Positions 976-26,740 of a DNA stretch of 64,000 nucleotides are shown piece by piece. Source of the stretch: an uncultured bacterium (GTDB taxonomy: Bacteria; Bipolaricaulota; Bipolaricaulia; UBA7950; UBA9294); the NCBI GenBank assembly GCA_903857865.1, contig CAIOGO010000018.1, forward strand, positions 23,588 to 87,587, in the 5' to 3' direction. Made by a program: the position numbers and the translations under genes. How positions within the stretch are numbered: the first letter of the stretch is position 1; every line of letters starts with the position of its first letter. The notes beneath the pieces were generated by a model. It saw nothing but the letters and a program-made list of their open reading frames with translations, was not told where the DNA came from and ran no database searches.

Positions 976-1099
976 GAACTCCGTTGGATTCTAGGTGCGC
1001 GGACGTGGAGAGACAACGAACACCGTGCCTCGACGCCTTGCTCACGGTGCCTCCACTCGGTCAATCTAGCGTGGGTGAGCAGGTCGGGAGGAGGAGTCC

Positions 1100-2125
1100 G
1101 TGAGTTGGACGAGGCGGCGGAAACGGTGGATGTGGATTGCGCTCGGGGCGCTCGTTTCTCTTGGGCTGCTTGTCCTCGCTTTCGTCCTCGTGCTCCACTT
1201 CACGGCGCCCGTTCCGCCCGGTGACGCGCCTGAGGTCGCGGTGAAGGCGATTCCGTCCGACTGGATCGAGCCCCCCGTGGCCCAGACCGAGTCGGAGGAG
1301 TCCGCAACTTCGTCCGGCCGGGCGACGTGGCGATCGACGGGCGCGCTCGCCCTGACCGCTGATGGGCGCTCGTTCGGCGAAGAAACCTACGAGCTCAGTG
1401 TTTCCGTTGACGGGGCGGTGCTCAAGTCTTCGGGCCGGTTCTGGTTCAAGATCCTCCTCGCTACGGTCAACGTGGCGTTCGAGCAGCGCTGGGAGGGGGG
1501 AGCCGGCCTCGAGCCGACGCTCTACACGCTGCACCTGAATGCGCCCTTCGGACAAGGCCAAGACATCGCCGGCGCGCTCGACGGGAACCGGTTCGCCGTG
1601 CGGCGCAACCGAAACGAGACGAGCCTTTCCATCGCGCCTGAGCGGACGATCGTCCTCGGCACGTTCAGCACCTACGCCCTCGTGCCGCTCTGGTTCGAAG
1701 AACGGCAACAAGATGGAGCCGCGTCGTTTGACGTCCTCCTATTCGGCGGGCCGCCGGGTGCCGCGTCCGTGGGCGGAGACGGCGAACTTCCCAAGGTCAC
1801 CGTCGAGCGCGACGGGACGGCGTCCGCACGAGGGGACGGTCTGATGATCCATGTCGAGAGGTATAAGATCTCGAGCCCGTTCGGCGACAGCGTGCTCTAC
1901 GCCAAAGGGAGAGAGTTCCTTGCCCTCGTCGCCGGAACCCCCGACCGGCCGCTTCTCGTCCACCGCAGCGACTACTTCCCTCAAGGCTTCAACGTGGTCG
2001 ACACGCAGAACGCGACGGGTGCGCTCCAGCTGGTTGAGAATCTCGGGTACCGGGCGACGAGGACCTTCATCACGTACCGCAAGCCGCTGGCGCAGCCGGA
2101 TGCGGCTGGAGCTGCGCGGAAGTAA
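1100..2125 (+). CDS. Membrane-anchored hypothetical protein (N-terminal TM helix plus a ~300 aa extracytoplasmic domain)
   Basis: 341 aa ORF. Hydrophobic N-terminus (WIALGALVSLGLLVLAFVLVL). Protein-like composition. Followed 68 nt later by the APH gene on the same strand. Confidence 0.55.
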   Translation: MSWTRRRKRWMWIALGALVSLGLLVLAFVLVLHFTAPVPPGDAPEVAVKAIPSDWIEPPVAQTESEESATSSGRATWRSTGALALTADGRSFGEETYELSVSVDGAVLKSSGRFWFKILLATVNVAFEQRWEGGAGLEPTLYTLHLNAPFGQGQDIAGALDGNRFAVRRNRNETSLSIAPERTIVLGTFSTYALVPLWFEERQQDGAASFDVLLFGGPPGAASVGGDGELPKVTVERDGTASARGDGLMIHVERYKISSPFGDSVLYAKGREFLALVAGTPDRPLLVHRSDYFPQGFNVVDTQNATGALQLVENLGYRATRTFITYRKPLAQPDAAGAARK

Positions 2126-2192
2126 CTCCCAGCCATCTCTCAAGGGTGCGGCTCCGATTGCCCTCTGGAGACGGCGGGGCGAAACTCTCCCC

Positions 2193-3173
2193 ATGCGACG
2201 GTTCGACGAGCTTACGGACAGCGAGAAGACAGAGCGCTACGCGCGCCTTGCCGAGAAAGCCCTCGCCGCCTACGGCCTTGCCGGCGACCTCGTCTACGTC
2301 GCCCAAGGGACAAGCGTTGTGTTTCGATTGCGCGCCGGCGGGGCGTCGTTCGCACTACGCCTCTGCGCTCCCGGACGCGATCACGCTCCGCTGCGGCGTG
2401 AGCTCCTCTGGCTTGCAGCCCTCGGCCGCGACACGAGCTTGTCGATTCCCGAGCCGGTCTTGAGTCTGACCGGAGACCTCTTCCGGTCTGTGTCGATGGA
2501 GGGTGTGCCTAGCACGCGAGCGTGCATGGTGTTGCGTTGGATTGACGGCGAGCGCCGCGAAGCCGAGCTGACCACTGACGAGGTGGCGGCCATGGGGCAA
2601 CTTGCCGCGGCATTGCACCGGCACGCCGAGACGTTCCGCTGGCCGGACGAGCTTGCGCTCGGATGCGCGGATCCCGCGGACCGGATGCTTGCGGCTGCCG
2701 AAGGTGTCCGTCCGGCGCTTGCCTCGCCGGCGGACCAGGCGCTGTTGTGCAACGCGGCGGCCTTCGTCAGCGAGGCCACCGCAGAGCACGGGGCCAGCCC
2801 GGAGGCTATCGGGGTCATCCACGGCGACCTACGGCTGCGAAAGATGCGCACGGGCCGCGACCCGGTAGGCATCCTCGGGTTCGACGCCTGCCGCATCGGC
2901 GCGTACCTCGACGATCTCTCTCTCCTTTGGAGCGCGCTCGACGGCCGCGAAGCGACGCCGGCGCTTCGTGAAGCGTTGCTCGACGGATACCAGTCGGTCC
3001 GCGGGTTTCCCGCCGGCGGCGCGAGCTCCCTGCGCGCCTACGTCGCGTTGCGCGGAATGGAGGACGCCGCGCGGACACTCCATGCCCTGGGCCGAGAACG
3101 GACGCCCAATCGGGGGTCCCTGGATCGAGTGACGGGCGACCTTCGCCGCGTTCTGGTCGGCGCCTTGCGCTAG
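2193..3173 (+). CDS. Aminoglycoside/antibiotic phosphotransferase-family kinase (APH / protein-kinase-like fold)
   Basis: Start ATG re-called at M115 of ORF 1851..3173. Catalytic-loop motif IHGDLRLRKM (HGDxxxxN) and DxxR-type downstream motif. About 326 aa. Confidence 0.75.
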   Translation: MRRFDELTDSEKTERYARLAEKALAAYGLAGDLVYVAQGTSVVFRLRAGGASFALRLCAPGRDHAPLRRELLWLAALGRDTSLSIPEPVLSLTGDLFRSVSMEGVPSTRACMVLRWIDGERREAELTTDEVAAMGQLAAALHRHAETFRWPDELALGCADPADRMLAAAEGVRPALASPADQALLCNAAAFVSEATAEHGASPEAIGVIHGDLRLRKMRTGRDPVGILGFDACRIGAYLDDLSLLWSALDGREATPALREALLDGYQSVRGFPAGGASSLRAYVALRGMEDAARTLHALGRERTPNRGSLDRVTGDLRRVLVGALR

Positions 3174-3229
3174 TCCGTTCGACACAGTGCGTCGGTGCAA
3201 TGAGCCGCTCCTCCCAGTATTCTCCCTGA

Positions 3230-4687
3230 ATGCACTTCAAGACGCCGACCCGAGAGGACATCCTGACCGGACCCGCCCTGCGCACGATGGCTTGCATCGG
3301 GGCGCCGGCTGCGCTCGGTTCCCTCATCTTCACGTTCTACAACCTGGCTGACGCGTTCTGGGTCGGTCGGCTTCCGGTCGACGACGCCGGAGCGGCCATG
3401 GCCGGGATCCAGGTTTCTTGGCCCTTCGTTTGGCTACTCATCTCGTTCATCGGCGGCTTCGGCGGCGCGGCGGCCAGCGCGTTCGTCGCCCAGTACACGG
3501 GAGCGGGGCGGCCGCGCGAAGCGAATCTCGCTCTGAACCAGCTTGTGTTCCTCTCTGCGGTCGGCAGCGTGGTCTTCGGCCTGCTCGGCTTCGCGCTCAC
3601 GCCGTGGGTCCTCACGATTCTTGTCGGCCACGGAGCGGTTGCGGACGCAGCCGGCATCTATCTTCAGATCATCTTCCTCGGCTTGCCGACGATGGTGCTG
3701 CCCGGCCTTTTCTCGCAGGCATACATCGCCACCGGCGACGGAGTGACGCCGCTCCTCGTGAACGGAGCATGCACCGTGCTGAACATGGTTCTCGATCCCT
3801 TCCTCGTTCTCGGGTGGGGTCCGTTTGGCCGCATGGGCATCCTCGGCGCTGGATACGCGACCGTGGCCGCTCAAGCCGTGGCGACGATCGTCTTCCTCGT
3901 CTTGTTCGCGCGCAGCCGCGGCGTACTCCACCTGCGATGGGCCGAGCTTCGACCTCGGAAGAGCTGGATTCTGCGCGCGCTGCGCGTCGGGACTCCGGCC
4001 GGCCTCGGTCAGTCCGGGACGGCGCTCGGCTTCGTCGTCATGACCGGCGTGATCGGCCGCCTGCCAAACGCGGAGGCGGCACTTGCCGGGTACGGCGTGG
4101 GGGATCGCCTCCTCGGGATCTTCCTCATTCTCTCGGAAGGGCTGCAATCTGGGCTCACGGCGATGATCGGCCAGGCGCTCGGCGCTGGACTCCTCGAACG
4201 GGCGAGGGACCTCCTGCGAAAGGGGCTGGCCTCGCTCATCGTGATCCTCTCGATCGAAGGCGTCATCCTGATCCTCATCCGACACCCCCTTGTGGCGCTG
4301 TTCGCCCCGGGAAACGCGGATGTCATCGAGGTGGGCGCGCAGTTCGTCCTCGCGTTTGCCGTGTCGCTCCCGTTCTTCGGAACGTTCTTTGCCGCCACGG
4401 CCGTCTACCGAGCGGCGGGGCGCAATTGGCCCTCGGCGATGCTCGAGCTCGTGCGACTGTGGGGGCTGCGAGTGCCCCTTTCGTTTCTCTTCGCCTTCCC
4501 CTTCGGCCTTGGAGCGACCGGCGCGTGGTGGGGCATGTCGGCGAGCAACATCCTGGCCGGACTCCTCGCCGTCGTCTTCCTCGGCCGCTACAGCTGGCAA
4601 CACGCGATCATCGAGCCGGCATCGGATCCTACCTGCGCTCTCCAGGTCCATCCTGGAGGAACGCGCGTCAACCCTGACGAACCGTAG
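3230..4687 (+). CDS. MATE family multidrug efflux transporter (NorM/DinF-like)
   Basis: 485 aa with about 12 TM segments. Typical MATE N-terminus (PALRTMACIGAPAALGSLIFTFYNLADAFWVGRL) and repeated 6+6 TM organisation. Confidence 0.9.
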   Translation: MHFKTPTREDILTGPALRTMACIGAPAALGSLIFTFYNLADAFWVGRLPVDDAGAAMAGIQVSWPFVWLLISFIGGFGGAAASAFVAQYTGAGRPREANLALNQLVFLSAVGSVVFGLLGFALTPWVLTILVGHGAVADAAGIYLQIIFLGLPTMVLPGLFSQAYIATGDGVTPLLVNGACTVLNMVLDPFLVLGWGPFGRMGILGAGYATVAAQAVATIVFLVLFARSRGVLHLRWAELRPRKSWILRALRVGTPAGLGQSGTALGFVVMTGVIGRLPNAEAALAGYGVGDRLLGIFLILSEGLQSGLTAMIGQALGAGLLERARDLLRKGLASLIVILSIEGVILILIRHPLVALFAPGNADVIEVGAQFVLAFAVSLPFFGTFFAATAVYRAAGRNWPSAMLELVRLWGLRVPLSFLFAFPFGLGATGAWWGMSASNILAGLLAVVFLGRYSWQHAIIEPASDPTCALQVHPGGTRVNPDEP

Positions 4688-19604: not shown

Positions 19605-19943
19605 TCACGCGGAGTCTTCGTCGATCTCTCCCACGGCGTCGCGCAGCGACGCGCGCAACTCGGCAATCTGCGTCGTCGCGCCTGCGACCTTGTCGAACAG
19701 GGCGGCGTTCGCCTTGATCCCCTCGCGGATCATGAATGTCGCGGCGCTCGAACGGCTGCGGCAGATGCTCGCATCGACCAACATGTCGAGCTGCTGAAGG
19801 ATCTGGGCATTGACGCGCACCATGACCACGTGCTCGCGGTCGACGAGCGCGTTCTCGATCGCCTCCATCAAGGAATCGCCGGATGCACAACATGCGATCT
19901 TGGCCACCAGCTTCTTTCTCGGTTCGCGTTCCTTGTCGGCCAT
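19605..19943 (-). CDS. Ribbon-helix-helix (CopG/Arc/MetJ-like) DNA-binding protein
   Basis: Central RHH segment VVMVRVNAQILQQLDMLVDASICRSRSSAATFMIREGI. 112 aa from MADKER. Confidence 0.6.
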   Translation of the reverse strand: MADKEREPRKKLVAKIACCASGDSLMEAIENALVDREHVVMVRVNAQILQQLDMLVDASICRSRSSAATFMIREGIKANAALFDKVAGATTQIAELRASLRDAVGEIDEDSA

Positions 19944-20025
19944 TACGACCACCACCTGTTACTTGTAATAGTGTCACAAGTCGGCGGCCGAGTCAAGGGC
20001 TGCGGCAAGAGAGAGTCCGCGGCGG

Positions 20026-20979: not shown

Positions 20980-21315
20980 CTAGAAGACGCATGCGTCGAG
21001 GAGCGAGAGGGCTTCCTGGAGAACCTCATCCGGCGCCTTTCCGATTCGCTTCGCCCGGCGAGTGCGGAAGTCGATCGACCGCATTTGCTCGACCGTGACG
21101 AAGCCGGTCACGCCGCCGCCCTCCGGGATCGCCACGTGGAACGGGCAGTCGCGGCGCGTGTTCGTGATCGGGCAGACGATGGCGAGCCCCGTGTGTTGAT
21201 TGAACAGGTCGTGACTGACGACGAGCGCCAGCCGACGGCCGCTCTGCTCGTGACCGGAGCGCGGATCGAACGCCACGGCGATGAAATCACCTTGCCGCGG
21301 AACGTACTCGGCCAT
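20980..21315 (-). CDS. mazF: MazF/PemK-family endoribonuclease toxin
   Basis: PemK fold signature (…GDFIAVAFDPRSGHEQSGRRLALVVSHDLFNQHTGLAIVCPITN…). 111 aa. Start abuts the MazE stop. Confidence 0.85.
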   Translation of the reverse strand: MAEYVPRQGDFIAVAFDPRSGHEQSGRRLALVVSHDLFNQHTGLAIVCPITNTRRDCPFHVAIPEGGGVTGFVTVEQMRSIDFRTRRAKRIGKAPDEVLQEALSLLDACVF

Positions 21316-21564
21316 CTACCAGACCTCGCGGCCCGCCGGCGGACCCCAGTCGAGTTCTTCGGACTTGTAGTCGGCGGGCATGTCCTTGACGAGCTGACGC
21401 AGATCGTGCCCGCCGCGCACCCGCCGCGCCGGCGTGATGACGAGGACGCCGTCACGCGCCGCCACCTCGACCGCGTCGCCCACGCTGAGGTCAACGTTCG
21501 AGAGCAGCTCCTTGCTCAGCCGAAGTCCCTGGCTGTTGCCCCACTTCTGGACCTTCGTGATCAT
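21316..21564 (-). CDS. mazE: MazE (AbrB/SpoVT-fold) antitoxin
   Basis: MITKVQKWGNSQGLRLSKELL… and a C-terminal …DWGPPAGREVW, which resembles E. coli MazE …DWGEPKDKEVW. Confidence 0.85.
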   Translation of the reverse strand: MITKVQKWGNSQGLRLSKELLSNVDLSVGDAVEVAARDGVLVITPARRVRGGHDLRQLVKDMPADYKSEELDWGPPAGREVW

Positions 21565-21642
21565 CGCGCTACCTCCAGCGGATAGCCGAAGTATAGCCCA
21601 ACAAGCCACTATGATGGAACACGGCGCAATCGCATGCATCAT

Positions 21643-22851
21643 CTATGGCAAGCGGGGTTGCGGCGCTTCAGCCCGCGCGCCTGGCTTAGAGCGCAGAAGC
21701 TCAAGACCGTCTCTGCTGAAGTCCGCGAGCGTCGCGAACTTGTGTATGGCACGGCCCTTAAAGAGCCTGCTATACCTGACAGCGACAGGCCCCCGGGTCT
21801 TCATGATTCCGGGGTTTACGACAATGACCTCGGGGAGGCCTTCGTCGAGGAAGTGTATCTGACGGAACAGCCATTCGGAGTGCGAGTCTGTCGGGGGGAA
21901 CGAGTAACCGATGAATACGATTCGGCTGCAGAATGCGAGTTGCTCTCGCGCCAGCATCCACAGTCTGTGCATTGTTGATCCGCGCCTTATCAACTTGCGC
22001 GACGTAGGCGGGATAATGAATGGGCGCTCCTCTTGTCCGCATTCGGGGCACTTGCTGCCGACACTGAGATCGGCCAATTGCCCATCGCGCAGTGCGAGTC
22101 TGATTTGTCCGTGCCTTGAGCAGTCCAGGTTCTGACAAACCATCCAATTCAGTGAGCCGTGGAGTTTCAGTAGCACGCCGCGGCCAACGAAGTCGTTGAC
22201 GAGTGGGCGCTTGACCATAAGATCGCAATAGGTGGCGAATTGCGGGAACTTAGCGAGCTGAAGCGTGAAGTCGGCTATGGTGTCCCAGTTGAAGGAAATG
22301 ATCGAGTCATTGGGCTGGAGAGTGCTCAGAACGTCCAGCAGATGCTCGCAATGGAGACCCTCGGATTTGACCATGAGCAGGAGTGTTATGAAGTGCTCGA
22401 GATCGCGCTTGCAGGCTGAGAAGGCTCGGTGGTAGCTGGTGCCGACGTTGTACATCTGTTCGCCAATGTCGAGGAATGTGAAGACTTCCTCAATGCCAAC
22501 GCGTCGCCACTCATCCTGATCAAGTGCGCGGAGGTTGTGGTCTAGACCCCAGGCCCTGACGATCAGTTCGTTCAGGCCTTCGTACATGGGACCCAGCATG
22601 TTGACATGACGTTCCTCTCACGTTGGAGTCTTCAACAGTGTGAAGAGGTCGTAGAAGAAGGTCTCGCCGGACGGCATCTTGGCGAGAGACTCTCGCCAAC
22701 TGCCCTCCTTGGGGTACGTCGCTGCCCCGACGGATGCCCCGGCCCCGAGGACCAACATCGTTCTATCGTCCTGTCGCCCTTGCACAGGCCAATCAACCCC
22801 CATCGGTGATCGAACAATGAGACGCTCCAACCAAGTCGGCCAATAGTACAC
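21643..22851 (-). pseudogene. Sirtuin/SIR2-like protein (GAGxS NAD motif, catalytic LHGS His, Cys4 Zn ribbon) interrupted by an in-frame TGA at 22618-22620
   Basis: Track ORFs 22618..22851 (…MLVLGAGASVGAA…) and 21643..22599 (…LLKLHGSLNWMVCQNLDC…CPECGQ…) are in the same frame, separated only by a TGA plus 6 codons. Together they give a ~400 aa SIR2-fold protein. Possible starts are 22851, 22803 or 22758. Confidence 0.7.
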
Positions 22852-23266
22852 CGCCGGATTCCTCCTGATAGAGCATCCAGTAGCGTGCGCTGGCTGGTTC
22901 TGCCATCCGCGCGGTGTTTCGAGGTGCCAACATGCCCGAACGCATCAGGCGGGGCAGACACGCCGGGCGGAACACCGTCCAGAGATCGGTGACCGAGATT
23001 CATGGGATGACTACTCTCCGTGCATGTCTCAGCGTTGAGGAGAGGTTGCCGTCCGGCTACCTCCACGGCCTTGTTCCCCGGCGGGCCTCCTACTAGCTAG
23101 GATGTGCGCCCTGATCAGTGGCGAGGAGGGCGAATCGTGTCGATGGCGCACACTCGATGAGTGCGGAGTCCATCGGGACGTTCTGGTTGGCCGCTCGCCG
23201 GGTCCATTGCAGCCGTGCTGTCCGGGGAACTATGCGATCAGGCGAGTATTGGGGAGTGCGGGAGGC

Positions 23267-23520
23267 ATGATGCGCATTCTGGGAATCGAGAACGGCAAGC
23301 GGCTCGCCGGGGAAGCCACTGGTGGAAAATCTGCGCGAGGAGACGGCGCGCGTAGAACCTGCGCCAAGAAGGCAGGCTGCGGGAGATCTACATGACCGAC
23401 GAGCACTCGGGGCCGTGATCCTGCTTGAGTGTGCGAGCACCGCCGAGGCGGGGGCACTCCCGAATAAGCTGCCTCTCGTGCGTCGCATCTTGCGGCGTCG
23501 GGCCCTCCCCTGGTATGTTT
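23267..23520 (+). pseudogene. Decayed paralog (multiple frameshifts) of the muconolactone-isomerase-like gene at 24302..24595
   Basis: Segments [15 protein letters not shown] (frame A), NLREETARV (B), [12 protein letters not shown] (C) and [25 protein letters not shown] (B) each match consecutive parts of the downstream intact copy. Confidence 0.6.
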
Positions 23521-23573
23521 CCCCCCATGTGGCCGGGATCGCCTGGGTGCGATCTCGCGAGGAGGAAGACGAC

Positions 23574-24281
23574 ATGTCGATGCCAAAGCGGATGGGGGCG
23601 GAGTTCTTCGGGACGTTCTGGTTGGTGTTGGGTGGGTGCGGGAGCGCGGTGTTGGCGGCCGCCTTCCCTGGGCTCGGAATCGGATTCGTCGGGGTGGCGC
23701 TCGCGTTCGGACTCACGGTCCTGACGATGGCCTATGCGATTGGCCACATTTCGGGCTGCCACCTGAATCCGGCGGTCTCGCTCGGTCTCTGGGTCGGAGG
23801 GCGGTTCCCGGCGAAGGACCTCGTGCCCTATGTCGTCGCTCAAGTTGCAGGCGCGGCGGCCGGCGCAGGGATCCTCTACCTCATTGCGACCGGGGCGCCG
23901 AGCTTCGACGTGACGGGCGGATTCGCGACGAACGGCTACGGGATTCACTCGCCGGGTGGCTACACGATGACGGCGGCCATCATTTGCGAGGTGGTCATGA
24001 CGGCGATGTTCCTCATGGTGATCCTCGGGGCGACGGACAAGCGGGCTCCGAAGGGCTTCGCGCCGATCGCCATCGGACTCGCGCTGACGCTCATCCACCT
24101 GATCTCGATTCCGGTCACGAACACGTCGGTCAACCCGGCGCGTTCGACGGGCGTCGCGATCTTCCAGGGCGGCTGGGCGCTCCAGCAGCTCTGGCTCTTC
24201 TGGGCCGCCCCCTTGGTCGGGGCGATCGTCGGCGGCATCGCGTACCGCCTGATCGGCGGCGCGAAGGGTCAAGCAGTCTAG
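23574..24281 (+). CDS. aqpZ: Aquaporin Z (MIP family water channel)
   Basis: Two NPA boxes (HLNPAVS and NPARS) and AqpZ-like length (235 aa). Start re-called at [18 protein letters not shown]. Confidence 0.92.
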
Positions 24282-24301
24282 ATAAACCGCTCGGAGGCGG
24301 A

Positions 24302-24595
24302 ATGCGGATCCTGGCGATCGAGACGCCGGCCGAAGGCTCGCCGGGCGTGCCTTCGGCTGGCGACCTGCGCGATGAGGCGGCGCGGGCGTGGGAGCTACAG
24401 CAAGCGGGCAGCCTGCGCGAGATCTACCTGACGGACAAACACTCGCGAGCCGTCATCCTGCTTGAATGCGCGAACGCCGGCGAAGCCGCGGCAATCCTCG
24501 CGACGCTGCCGCTCGTGCGCCGCGGGTTCATCACGTTCGACGTCATGGAGCTCGAGCCGTATCCTGGGTTCGCTCGGCTATTCGCTGGGAGGTGA
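24302..24595 (+). CDS. Muconolactone delta-isomerase-like small protein (97 aa)
   Basis: C-terminal half (…[41 protein letters not shown]) resembles MLI family proteins. Intact reading frame ending in TGA. Confidence 0.6.
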   Translation: MRILAIETPAEGSPGVPSAGDLRDEAARAWELQQAGSLREIYLTDKHSRAVILLECANAGEAAAILATLPLVRRGFITFDVMELEPYPGFARLFAGR

Positions 24596-25867: not shown

Positions 25868-26740
25868 CTACGGCTTTCGCGCGCTCACGCAGATGCTCGA
25901 CACCGTGGCCGCGAGGAGATGCGCCGTCTCGTCGGTCAACCCGACGTCCTCGAGGCGCAGGGCCTGGCCGTCGACAACGATCACCGAGGACCCGGAGTCC
26001 TCATTCTCTTGCGACTCGCGGCGCTCGAAAGCATCCTCGGCGAACGTTTCCTTGACGACTGTGACGTCTCGGAACCCGGCGTCGCGGATGGCGCCGAGGT
26101 AGTCGTCGATCTGGGATGCTCCGGCGATGCATCCGACGTAGTGTTCCATGGACTCGCGGACTTCTGTGGGAAGTTCTCCGCGCAGGACGATGTCGGAGAC
26201 CATCAGTCGTCCGCCGCGCTTGAGGGCGCGATGCGCCTCGCGGAACACCTGCGGCTTGTCGGGCGAGAGATTTACGACGCAGTTCGAGATGACGATGTCG
26301 ACCGAGGCGTCGGCGACAGGCAGGTGCTCGATCTCGCCGAGGCGGAACTCGACGTTCTCGATGCCTTCCTTGCGCGCGTTCTCCCTTGCGCGCTCGATCA
26401 TCTCCGGCGTCATGTCGACGCCGATGGCGCGGCCGGTCGGGCCGACCTTTTCCGCGGCGAGGAAGCAGTCAATGCCCGCTCCGGAACCGAGGTCGAGCAC
26501 GACCTCGCCCTTCTTGAGCGATGCGAGGGCTGTCGGATGGCCGCAACCGAGGCCGAGGTCGGCACCTTGGGGAATGGAACGCAACTCGTCCGCGCTGTAG
26601 CCGATGGCCTGGCTCACGGGCGAGGCGCTCTCCGAGCAGCACGTGCCGCCGCAACCGCTCTTGCACGACGTCGCGCGCTTGGCGTAGTTCTCGCGCACGG
26701 ACTTCCGGATTTCGTCATCGCGCTTCGCGTTCTTACTCAT
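25868..26740 (-). CDS. arsM: Arsenite S-adenosylmethionine methyltransferase
   Basis: Class I SAM MTase motif (VLDLGSGAGID) plus the conserved ArsM cysteines (…CKSGCGGTCC… and …LGCGHP…). About 290 aa. Confidence 0.85.
   Translation of the reverse strand: MSKNAKRDDEIRKSVRENYAKRATSCKSGCGGTCCSESASPVSQAIGYSADELRSIPQGADLGLGCGHPTALASLKKGEVVLDLGSGAGIDCFLAAEKVGPTGRAIGVDMTPEMIERARENARKEGIENVEFRLGEIEHLPVADASVDIVISNCVVNLSPDKPQVFREAHRALKRGGRLMVSDIVLRGELPTEVRESMEHYVGCIAGASQIDDYLGAIRDAGFRDVTVVKETFAEDAFERRESQENEDSGSSVIVVDGQALRLEDVGLTDETAHLLAATVSSICVSARKP

Follow-up and report, generated by a model that had tools for sequence, protein, structure and literature searches.

With a probability that we put at roughly 0.85, the SIR2-like gene upstream of mazEF in the window (the whole stretch of 64,000 nucleotides that was analysed) is a horizontally acquired stand-alone gene, pseudogenised by one Arg-to-stop mutation, which lies beside a resident mazEF pair at a variable cargo site and does not form a system with it. 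The analysis establishes how the gene is built and which fold its product has, that the stop codon is real and where it came from, that linkage with mazEF is absent, and that the empty site and the variable slot exist.

The gene occupies positions 21643..22851 of the minus strand (402 codons including one internal TGA, about 56% GC) and was annotated by us as a pseudogene of this population. The first-pass annotation had described two minus-strand ORFs, 22618..22851 and 21643..22599, that share one frame and are separated by TGA and six codons, and this description proved exact, the intervening codons being the TGA at 22620-22618 and six codons for EERHVN. The upstream ORF starts with GTG, has AGGAGG 8 nt upstream of it and specifies an N-terminal fragment of 77 aa (22621..22851, minus strand) with strand β1 and the GAGAS NAD-binding loop. 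It is closed by the in-frame TGA at codon 78 (22618..22620, minus strand), which is derived from CGA (Arg). The C-terminal ORF of 318 aa (21643..22599, minus strand), called as a gene of 318 or 314 aa in other assemblies, carries the FNWDT motif (N/D pair), the KLHGS histidine and the Cys4 ribbon, lacks the GAGAS loop and ends on TAG at 21645-21643. The sirtuin hallmarks that had been reported were all recovered: GAGAS (as LGAGAS) at 22732-22746, KLHGSLNW with its His codon at 22159-22161, and CQNLDC...CPECG at 22039-22137.

A homologue search with the joined translation returned 724 relatives, the full-length ones being single ORFs of 360-392 aa that cover 92-96% of the joined query with E-values down to 1e-150. 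When aligned with 17 intact homologues, the joined translation was collinear with them and showed no gap at the stop; the column of the TGA is ungapped and variable (H, Q, N or R). Because of this collinearity with single-ORF homologues, the two ORFs do not stand side by side by chance, and the alignment identifies them as a single gene, interrupted once, in agreement with the earlier suggestion that together they encode one protein of about 400 aa. The window copy keeps 70 of the 70 invariant columns, C223, C228, C252 and C255 among them, and G20, G22, N172, D174 and H215 are invariant in the 18 sequences including the window copy. No homologue of the gene was found to be naturally split at the position of the TGA. 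Homologues listed as proteins of 317-351 aa that start with MPSG were considered as possible further split genes and rejected as gene-caller artefacts after a check of locus L114, where the ORF runs uninterrupted over its full length and its start had been placed by the gene caller at an internal Met. As these entries are full-length ORFs, the split is peculiar to the lineage of the window. In one other locus (L113, 1968-2266) the first ~100 codons of a related SIR2-like gene were found at 82% nucleotide identity and in a different context; this fragment looks like another member of the family that has decayed independently.

The identical TGA is present in five independent assemblies (L001, L086/L093, L087, L088 and L089), obtained from different samples and with different assemblers (ENA ERZ27313047; JGI 3300023311, 3300022650, 3300022593 and 3300022653). 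All of these contigs read CCAACG-TGA-GAGGAA, and each matches the window at 99.95-99.99% identity with 1-3 SNPs. The same split is seen in the gene calls of three further records (46+318 aa or 314 aa). An intact protein of 394 aa, which falls into the same 90%-identity cluster as the window copy, is encoded in the Logan run SRR20698648 (P0127, locus L096). At 98% identity to the window in its coding sequence, this allele has ACG CGA GAG around codon 78, i.e., Arg, and the fragment P0122 likewise has Arg at this position. As the 98%-identical intact allele has CGA there, the stop is read as a recent nonsense mutation, CGA (Arg) to TGA, by a C-to-T transition at a CpG. The window and the intact allele differ by 10 synonymous and 11 non-synonymous substitutions (dN/dS 0.33). 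Two polymorphisms were seen inside the gene within the TGA-bearing population, F to V at codon 205 and D to G in P0123; neither is synonymous, which would fit relaxed selection, although the numbers are too small for proof.

Three options had been left by the first-pass annotation for the TGA, namely recent inactivation, a split gene with reinitiation and a sequencing error, and recent inactivation accounts best for its presence in five assemblies together with CGA in the 98%-identical allele. A sequencing or assembly artefact has practically no chance of being the cause, since the assemblies that share the TGA stem from separate samples, were made with different assemblers and depart from the window at other sites; nothing that would support such an artefact was found. 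Stop codons that are unusually rich in TAG in this genome raised the question whether the TGA is recoded, by insertion of selenocysteine or under a variant genetic code; such recoding is about as improbable as an artefact. Reassignment of TGA (code 4 or 25) was considered for this reason and rejected, because TGA properly closes Ada, SpoU and other genes; in the first two it stands right after the last domains, so that it serves as a regular stop codon of this genome. Selenocysteine at codon 78 was rejected as well, given that the homologue column holds Arg, His, Gln or Asn and never Cys, that the intact allele has Arg, and that no SECIS-like hairpin after the UGA and no Rfam match were detected. 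A GC3 scan for TGA reassignment was uninformative in this high-GC DNA. With regard to stop usage in general, 24 JGI gene calls on one of the related contigs (L086) comprise 15 TAG, 6 TGA and 3 TAA, which is TAG-rich for a genome of 66% GC, and the long high-GC3 ORFs of the window end on 24 TAG, 8 TGA and 1 TAA.

It is unlikely, though less so than the two preceding explanations, that the gene is still functional, either as a 77 + 318 aa split enzyme made by termination and reinitiation at the ATG at 22599 or through low-level read-through of the UGA. This ATG lies six codons past the stop, GAGGAA overlapping the stop is a possible weak ribosome-binding site, and in the predicted model the break falls in a surface segment between structural elements. 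The gene is otherwise pristine, the TGA being its sole lesion with every catalytic and invariant residue kept and with a dN/dS of 0.33 against the intact allele, albeit from few differences, so residual function of the TGA allele is conceivable; moreover, the TGA is the sole allele in every sampled member of a near-clonal population, a fixation that would be expected as well if this state were tolerated or useful. Against this stand the lack of any homologue naturally split at this point, the lack of conservation of the ATG at 22599 across the SIR2-like family, the long spacing (12 nt) between GAGGAA and that ATG, and the two non-synonymous polymorphisms already mentioned. Loss of function is to be expected because the 318 aa product is devoid of strand β1 and of the Gly-rich NAD loop, both of which reside on the 77 aa piece. 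Hence, as far as can be judged from the sequences, the SIR2-like gene of the window is most likely a recently formed, non-functional pseudogene.

Assignment of the product to SIR2 required structure prediction, since the Pfam and NCBIfam scans gave no matches or very weak ones. The joined window protein had no Pfam match at E<0.1, including SIR2 (PF02146). Among the members of its family, Pfam SIR2_2 was matched by 5 of 18, with a best E of 4.7e-5. The window protein itself was hit by PADLOC SIR2 models at E of about 9e-4 and by NCBIfam CobB at E 0.017 over the His/zinc region, and a profile search of PDB sequences gave a best E of only 0.31, to 8j4u. The predicted model of the ~400 aa protein consists of a single domain, residues 14-371, with a Rossmann-type sirtuin fold, and the GAGxS loop, the N/D pair and the catalytic His are present. 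Thus the earlier designation of the gene as sirtuin-like (SIR2) is supported by the predicted fold and the motifs, while the Pfam HMM check that was to go with it gave no match for this copy and SIR2_2 matches in 5 of 18 relatives. The Cys4 module is invariant in the family and starts 8 residues past the catalytic His, a position that we take, from Sir2Tm, to be the same as in canonical sirtuins.

The family is large, spanning bacteria and archaea with E<=1e-3 matches to the representatives of 6,722 clusters formed at 50% identity, and it is single-domain: among the top 150 representatives (95-411 aa) the full-length proteins have about 320-410 aa, and none is long enough for an added sensor domain. 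It is absent from PADLOC 2023, and our literature search found no study of it. The SIR2 subunits of the SIR2-HerA (Nezha) system (PDB 8yhx_G, 8w9l_A, 8j4u_A and 8uae_B) share 14-18% sequence identity with the window protein; they come with a HerA partner, whereas no HerA is present in the window, where the neighbours are mazE and gene remnants, and nine orthologous loci have no shared neighbour. The ribbon of four invariant Cys after the catalytic His is another difference, the aligned HerA-linked SIR2 having a gap there. Unlike the canonical sirtuin deacylases (CobB, Sir2Af, SIRT1-7), the window protein is not matched by PF02146, and its family has Cx4C instead of Cx2C as the first Cys pair, a long helical insert between the GAGAS loop and the FNWDT motif, and a patchy distribution, often among mobile or defence genes. 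From the SIR2_2 or 'SIRim' proteins (ThsA, DSR1, DSR2, FAM118) it is set apart by its single-domain architecture without SLOG, STAND, pAgo or a large C-terminal sensor; accordingly, the SLOG, sensor, STAND or pAgo-APAZ modules of Thoeris ThsA, DSR1-DSR2, SIR2-STAND (Avs5) and SPARSA are not found in the window protein. It also carries a zinc ribbon, whereas the antiphage sirtuins of the SIR2_2 type were reported to have no zinc module (PMC12700824).

The mazEF pair downstream matches the usual type II toxin-antitoxin arrangement, with mazE (AbrB/MazE fold family) first and abutting mazF (PemK family). The mazE antitoxin gene (82 aa; 21316..21564, minus strand) was recognized by PF04014 at E 3.9e-6 and by NCBIfam MazE at 4.2e-13, and the mazF toxin gene (111 aa; 20980..21315, minus strand) by PF02452 (PemK) at E 6.9e-27 and by NCBIfam MazF at 2.8e-24. 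Both scores are below the NCBIfam equivalog cut-offs (E. coli MazE, MazF), so the pair is a divergent member, otherwise with nothing unusual. These domain matches confirm the earlier reading of the two genes and of their spacing: 78 nt separate the SIR2 stop (21645-21643) from the mazE ATG (21564), and 0 nt separate the mazE TAG (21318-21316) from the mazF ATG (21315). GGAGG precedes the mazE ATG by 7 nt within a conserved leader (GGCTATACTTCGGCTATCCG..GGAGG..; 21565..21598, minus strand) that was delimited by comparison of 12 loci, with blastn boundaries at 21598. We read mazEF as a canonical type II toxin-antitoxin operon that is resident at this site and has a ribosome-binding site of its own and a conserved leader. 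A scan for sigma-70 promoters and terminators gave nothing above background, and the window as a whole yielded no match to rRNA, tRNA or Rfam. Elsewhere in the window, a second MazE-type antitoxin gene (91 aa, PF04014; 26733-27008, corresponding to 4308-4583 of L086) has no MazF partner called beside it and lies directly upstream of a class I SAM methyltransferase gene (25868-26740), overlapping it. At 19605-19955, adjoining the MBL-fold gene that neighbours mazEF, a 116 aa protein is encoded that is 91-99% conserved in relatives and is weakly matched (E 1.8e-5) by the C-terminal portion of the NCBIfam model for AbmR, an ATP-binding transcription factor.

Linkage between the SIR2-like gene and mazEF was surveyed from both sides. 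On the SIR2 side, 80 homologue loci with flanks of up to 10 kb on each side and the 1.2-kb contig L001 were collected (81 loci, 1.34 Mb), and tblastn with MazE and MazF gave no match at E<=1e-3 in any of them. The nine closest orthologous loci (39-59% identity) share no neighbour besides the SIR2-like gene itself. Single members of the family were found 3 kb from a type II restriction-modification system (L082), near a DEAD/MZB helicase (L083), in an integrative conjugative element with HigBA (L084, Muricauda oceani), near a tyrosine integrase (L114) and 20 nt upstream of a gene for a TIR-NACHT protein (P0041). MBL-fold genes occur near the SIR2-like gene in the window, L083 and L113 and were considered as a link, but they are mutually unrelated and their presence was regarded as a coincidence. 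On the host side, 16 relatives were found via the neighbouring MBL-fold gene. Upstream of it, 10 of the 16 have full matches to mazE and mazF (79-95% amino-acid identity; 84-95% for mazE and 79-88% for mazF), and partial pairs occur in two more, with mazF truncated in L110 and mazE cut by the contig end in L112. The order in these relatives is aqpZ-mazE-mazF-MBL without the SIR2-like gene, which was found in 0 of the 16. The GC content of the SIR2-like gene is 55-58%, vs about 66% for mazEF and the flanks.

The region just upstream of mazE is variable. In 12 related loci the similarity breaks off at one and the same position (GGCTATACTTCGGCTATCC...), which lies 34 nt before the start codon of mazE; the boundary of the slot is marked by GGCTATAC. 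The empty site is represented by L109 and L110, in which the start codon of aqpZ is followed by 175 nt and then by mazE-mazF-MBL; the segment 21599..23573 of the window, which comprises the SIR2-like cassette and the gene remnants, is absent from both. Upstream of the 34-nt mazE leader there are at least 6 unrelated contexts in the 12 loci (window vs L096-L111): the SIR2-like cassette in the window and L096, a PDC-S59-like protein in L100, a PDC-M05A/B pair in L098 and L105, an M05A-like protein together with an MqsR toxin in L111, and a canonical SIR2-HerA pair with a type I specificity subunit and PDC-M30/M41 genes in L106. Cargo in related strains further includes a type IIG restriction-modification gene (L096). 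The slot looks like a recombination and cargo hot spot for defence or toxin-antitoxin genes. The SIR2 protein of L106 is a different SIR2, unrelated to the family of the window; at 1034-3972 of that locus, SIR2 (393 aa) is followed by HerA (586 aa, PADLOC HerA 1e-153), with the type I restriction specificity subunit before them and DUF5131/PDC-M30/M41 after them.

The first-pass annotation had proposed a compact SIR2/MazE/MazF arrangement, i.e., one three-gene anti-phage system, and had known of no description of such a system; our literature search found none either. In favour of the proposal, the genes are co-oriented with gaps of 78 and 0 nt, a piece of mazE immediately follows the SIR2 gene in the closest intact relative (L096) as well, and known defence systems include ones with SIR2 domains and ones with MazF-like domains (PMC13069673). 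Nevertheless, we consider such a system very improbable. Conserved linkage with mazEF, on which the proposal had been staked, was not found: none of the 81 loci has mazEF, the nine orthologues have no shared neighbour, and at least 10 related loci, the empty sites of L109 and L110 among them, have mazEF at the same chromosomal site without SIR2. In addition, the GC content differs by 10 points, and mazE has its own leader conserved in relatives. Finally, L096 and the window each kept only part of the trio. L096 retains an intact SIR2 gene but just the first 31 codons of mazE, with mazF lost and the type IIG restriction-modification-like gene coming next; the window is the reverse, with the SIR2 gene broken and mazEF kept, so that neither lineage keeps all three genes. 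That one lineage kept SIR2 and the other mazEF is not the behaviour of one system. As the first 31 codons of mazE come right after the intact SIR2 gene in L096, the adjacency of SIR2 and mazE predates the nonsense mutation, and the tight packing of the two is explained by the position of the recombination hot spot just upstream of mazE.

Two remnants in the inserted segment are scars of earlier rearrangements in the window: a remnant of the 5' end of aqpZ (23156..23190, plus strand), 89% identical to 23591-23625 (repeat family D5), and a remnant of a second muconolactone-isomerase-like gene (23261..23486, plus strand), 72-77% identical to 24293-24523 and intact in L096. The intact genes lie downstream of them, aqpZ at 23574-24281 and the isomerase-like gene at 24293-24595. 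In L088 the stretch 23191-23590 is missing, apparently through recombination between the two 35-nt repeats of the aqpZ start. Two contigs diverge within mazE at points no more than 20 nt apart, L091 (its positions 1-1047 being joined at window position 21483) and L096 (break at 21465), and both breaks adjoin a GC-rich stretch at 21455-21480; these breakpoints could be due to assembly chimerism or to a recombination-prone spot. In L091 a NAGLU-like ORF is fused in frame to the MazE C-terminus; this contig, probably an assembly chimera, was left out of the evidence.

Taken together, the comparisons indicate that a low-GC one-gene SIR2-like cassette was inserted between aqpZ and mazE, in a slot in which different strains hold different defence or toxin-antitoxin cargo, while mazEF is resident and occupies this place in the chromosome also in relatives into which the SIR2 gene never came. 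The cassette encodes a solitary SIR2-fold protein of about 400 aa with the GAGxS loop, the N/D pair, the catalytic His and the sirtuin-placed Cys4 ribbon, and the change of CGA (Arg) to TGA at codon 78 separates the 77 aa with the NAD-binding β1/Gly loop from the remaining 318 aa. NAD+-consuming chemistry may be supposed for the intact protein from its sequence. A defence role of the family is plausible though unproven, considering the slot upstream of mazE and the mobile or defence contexts of other members. More tentatively, and with the odds rather against it, the intact family might represent an uncharacterised one-gene NAD+-consuming anti-phage (abortive-infection) effector that moves as a cassette into defence hot spots, the window copy having been recently silenced, perhaps because it was costly.

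A SIR2/MazEF defence system would have mattered, and is ruled out by the comparative data. The locus offers instead a clean case of a defence-type cargo gene just after its inactivation, with the ancestral intact allele at hand for comparison. The hypervariable slot ends exactly where the leader of a toxin-antitoxin operon begins, which is consistent with 'addiction' limiting the reach of replacements. Finally, the gene points to a widespread, uncharacterised stand-alone family that combines a SIR2-HerA-like core with a Cys4 module like that of canonical sirtuins.
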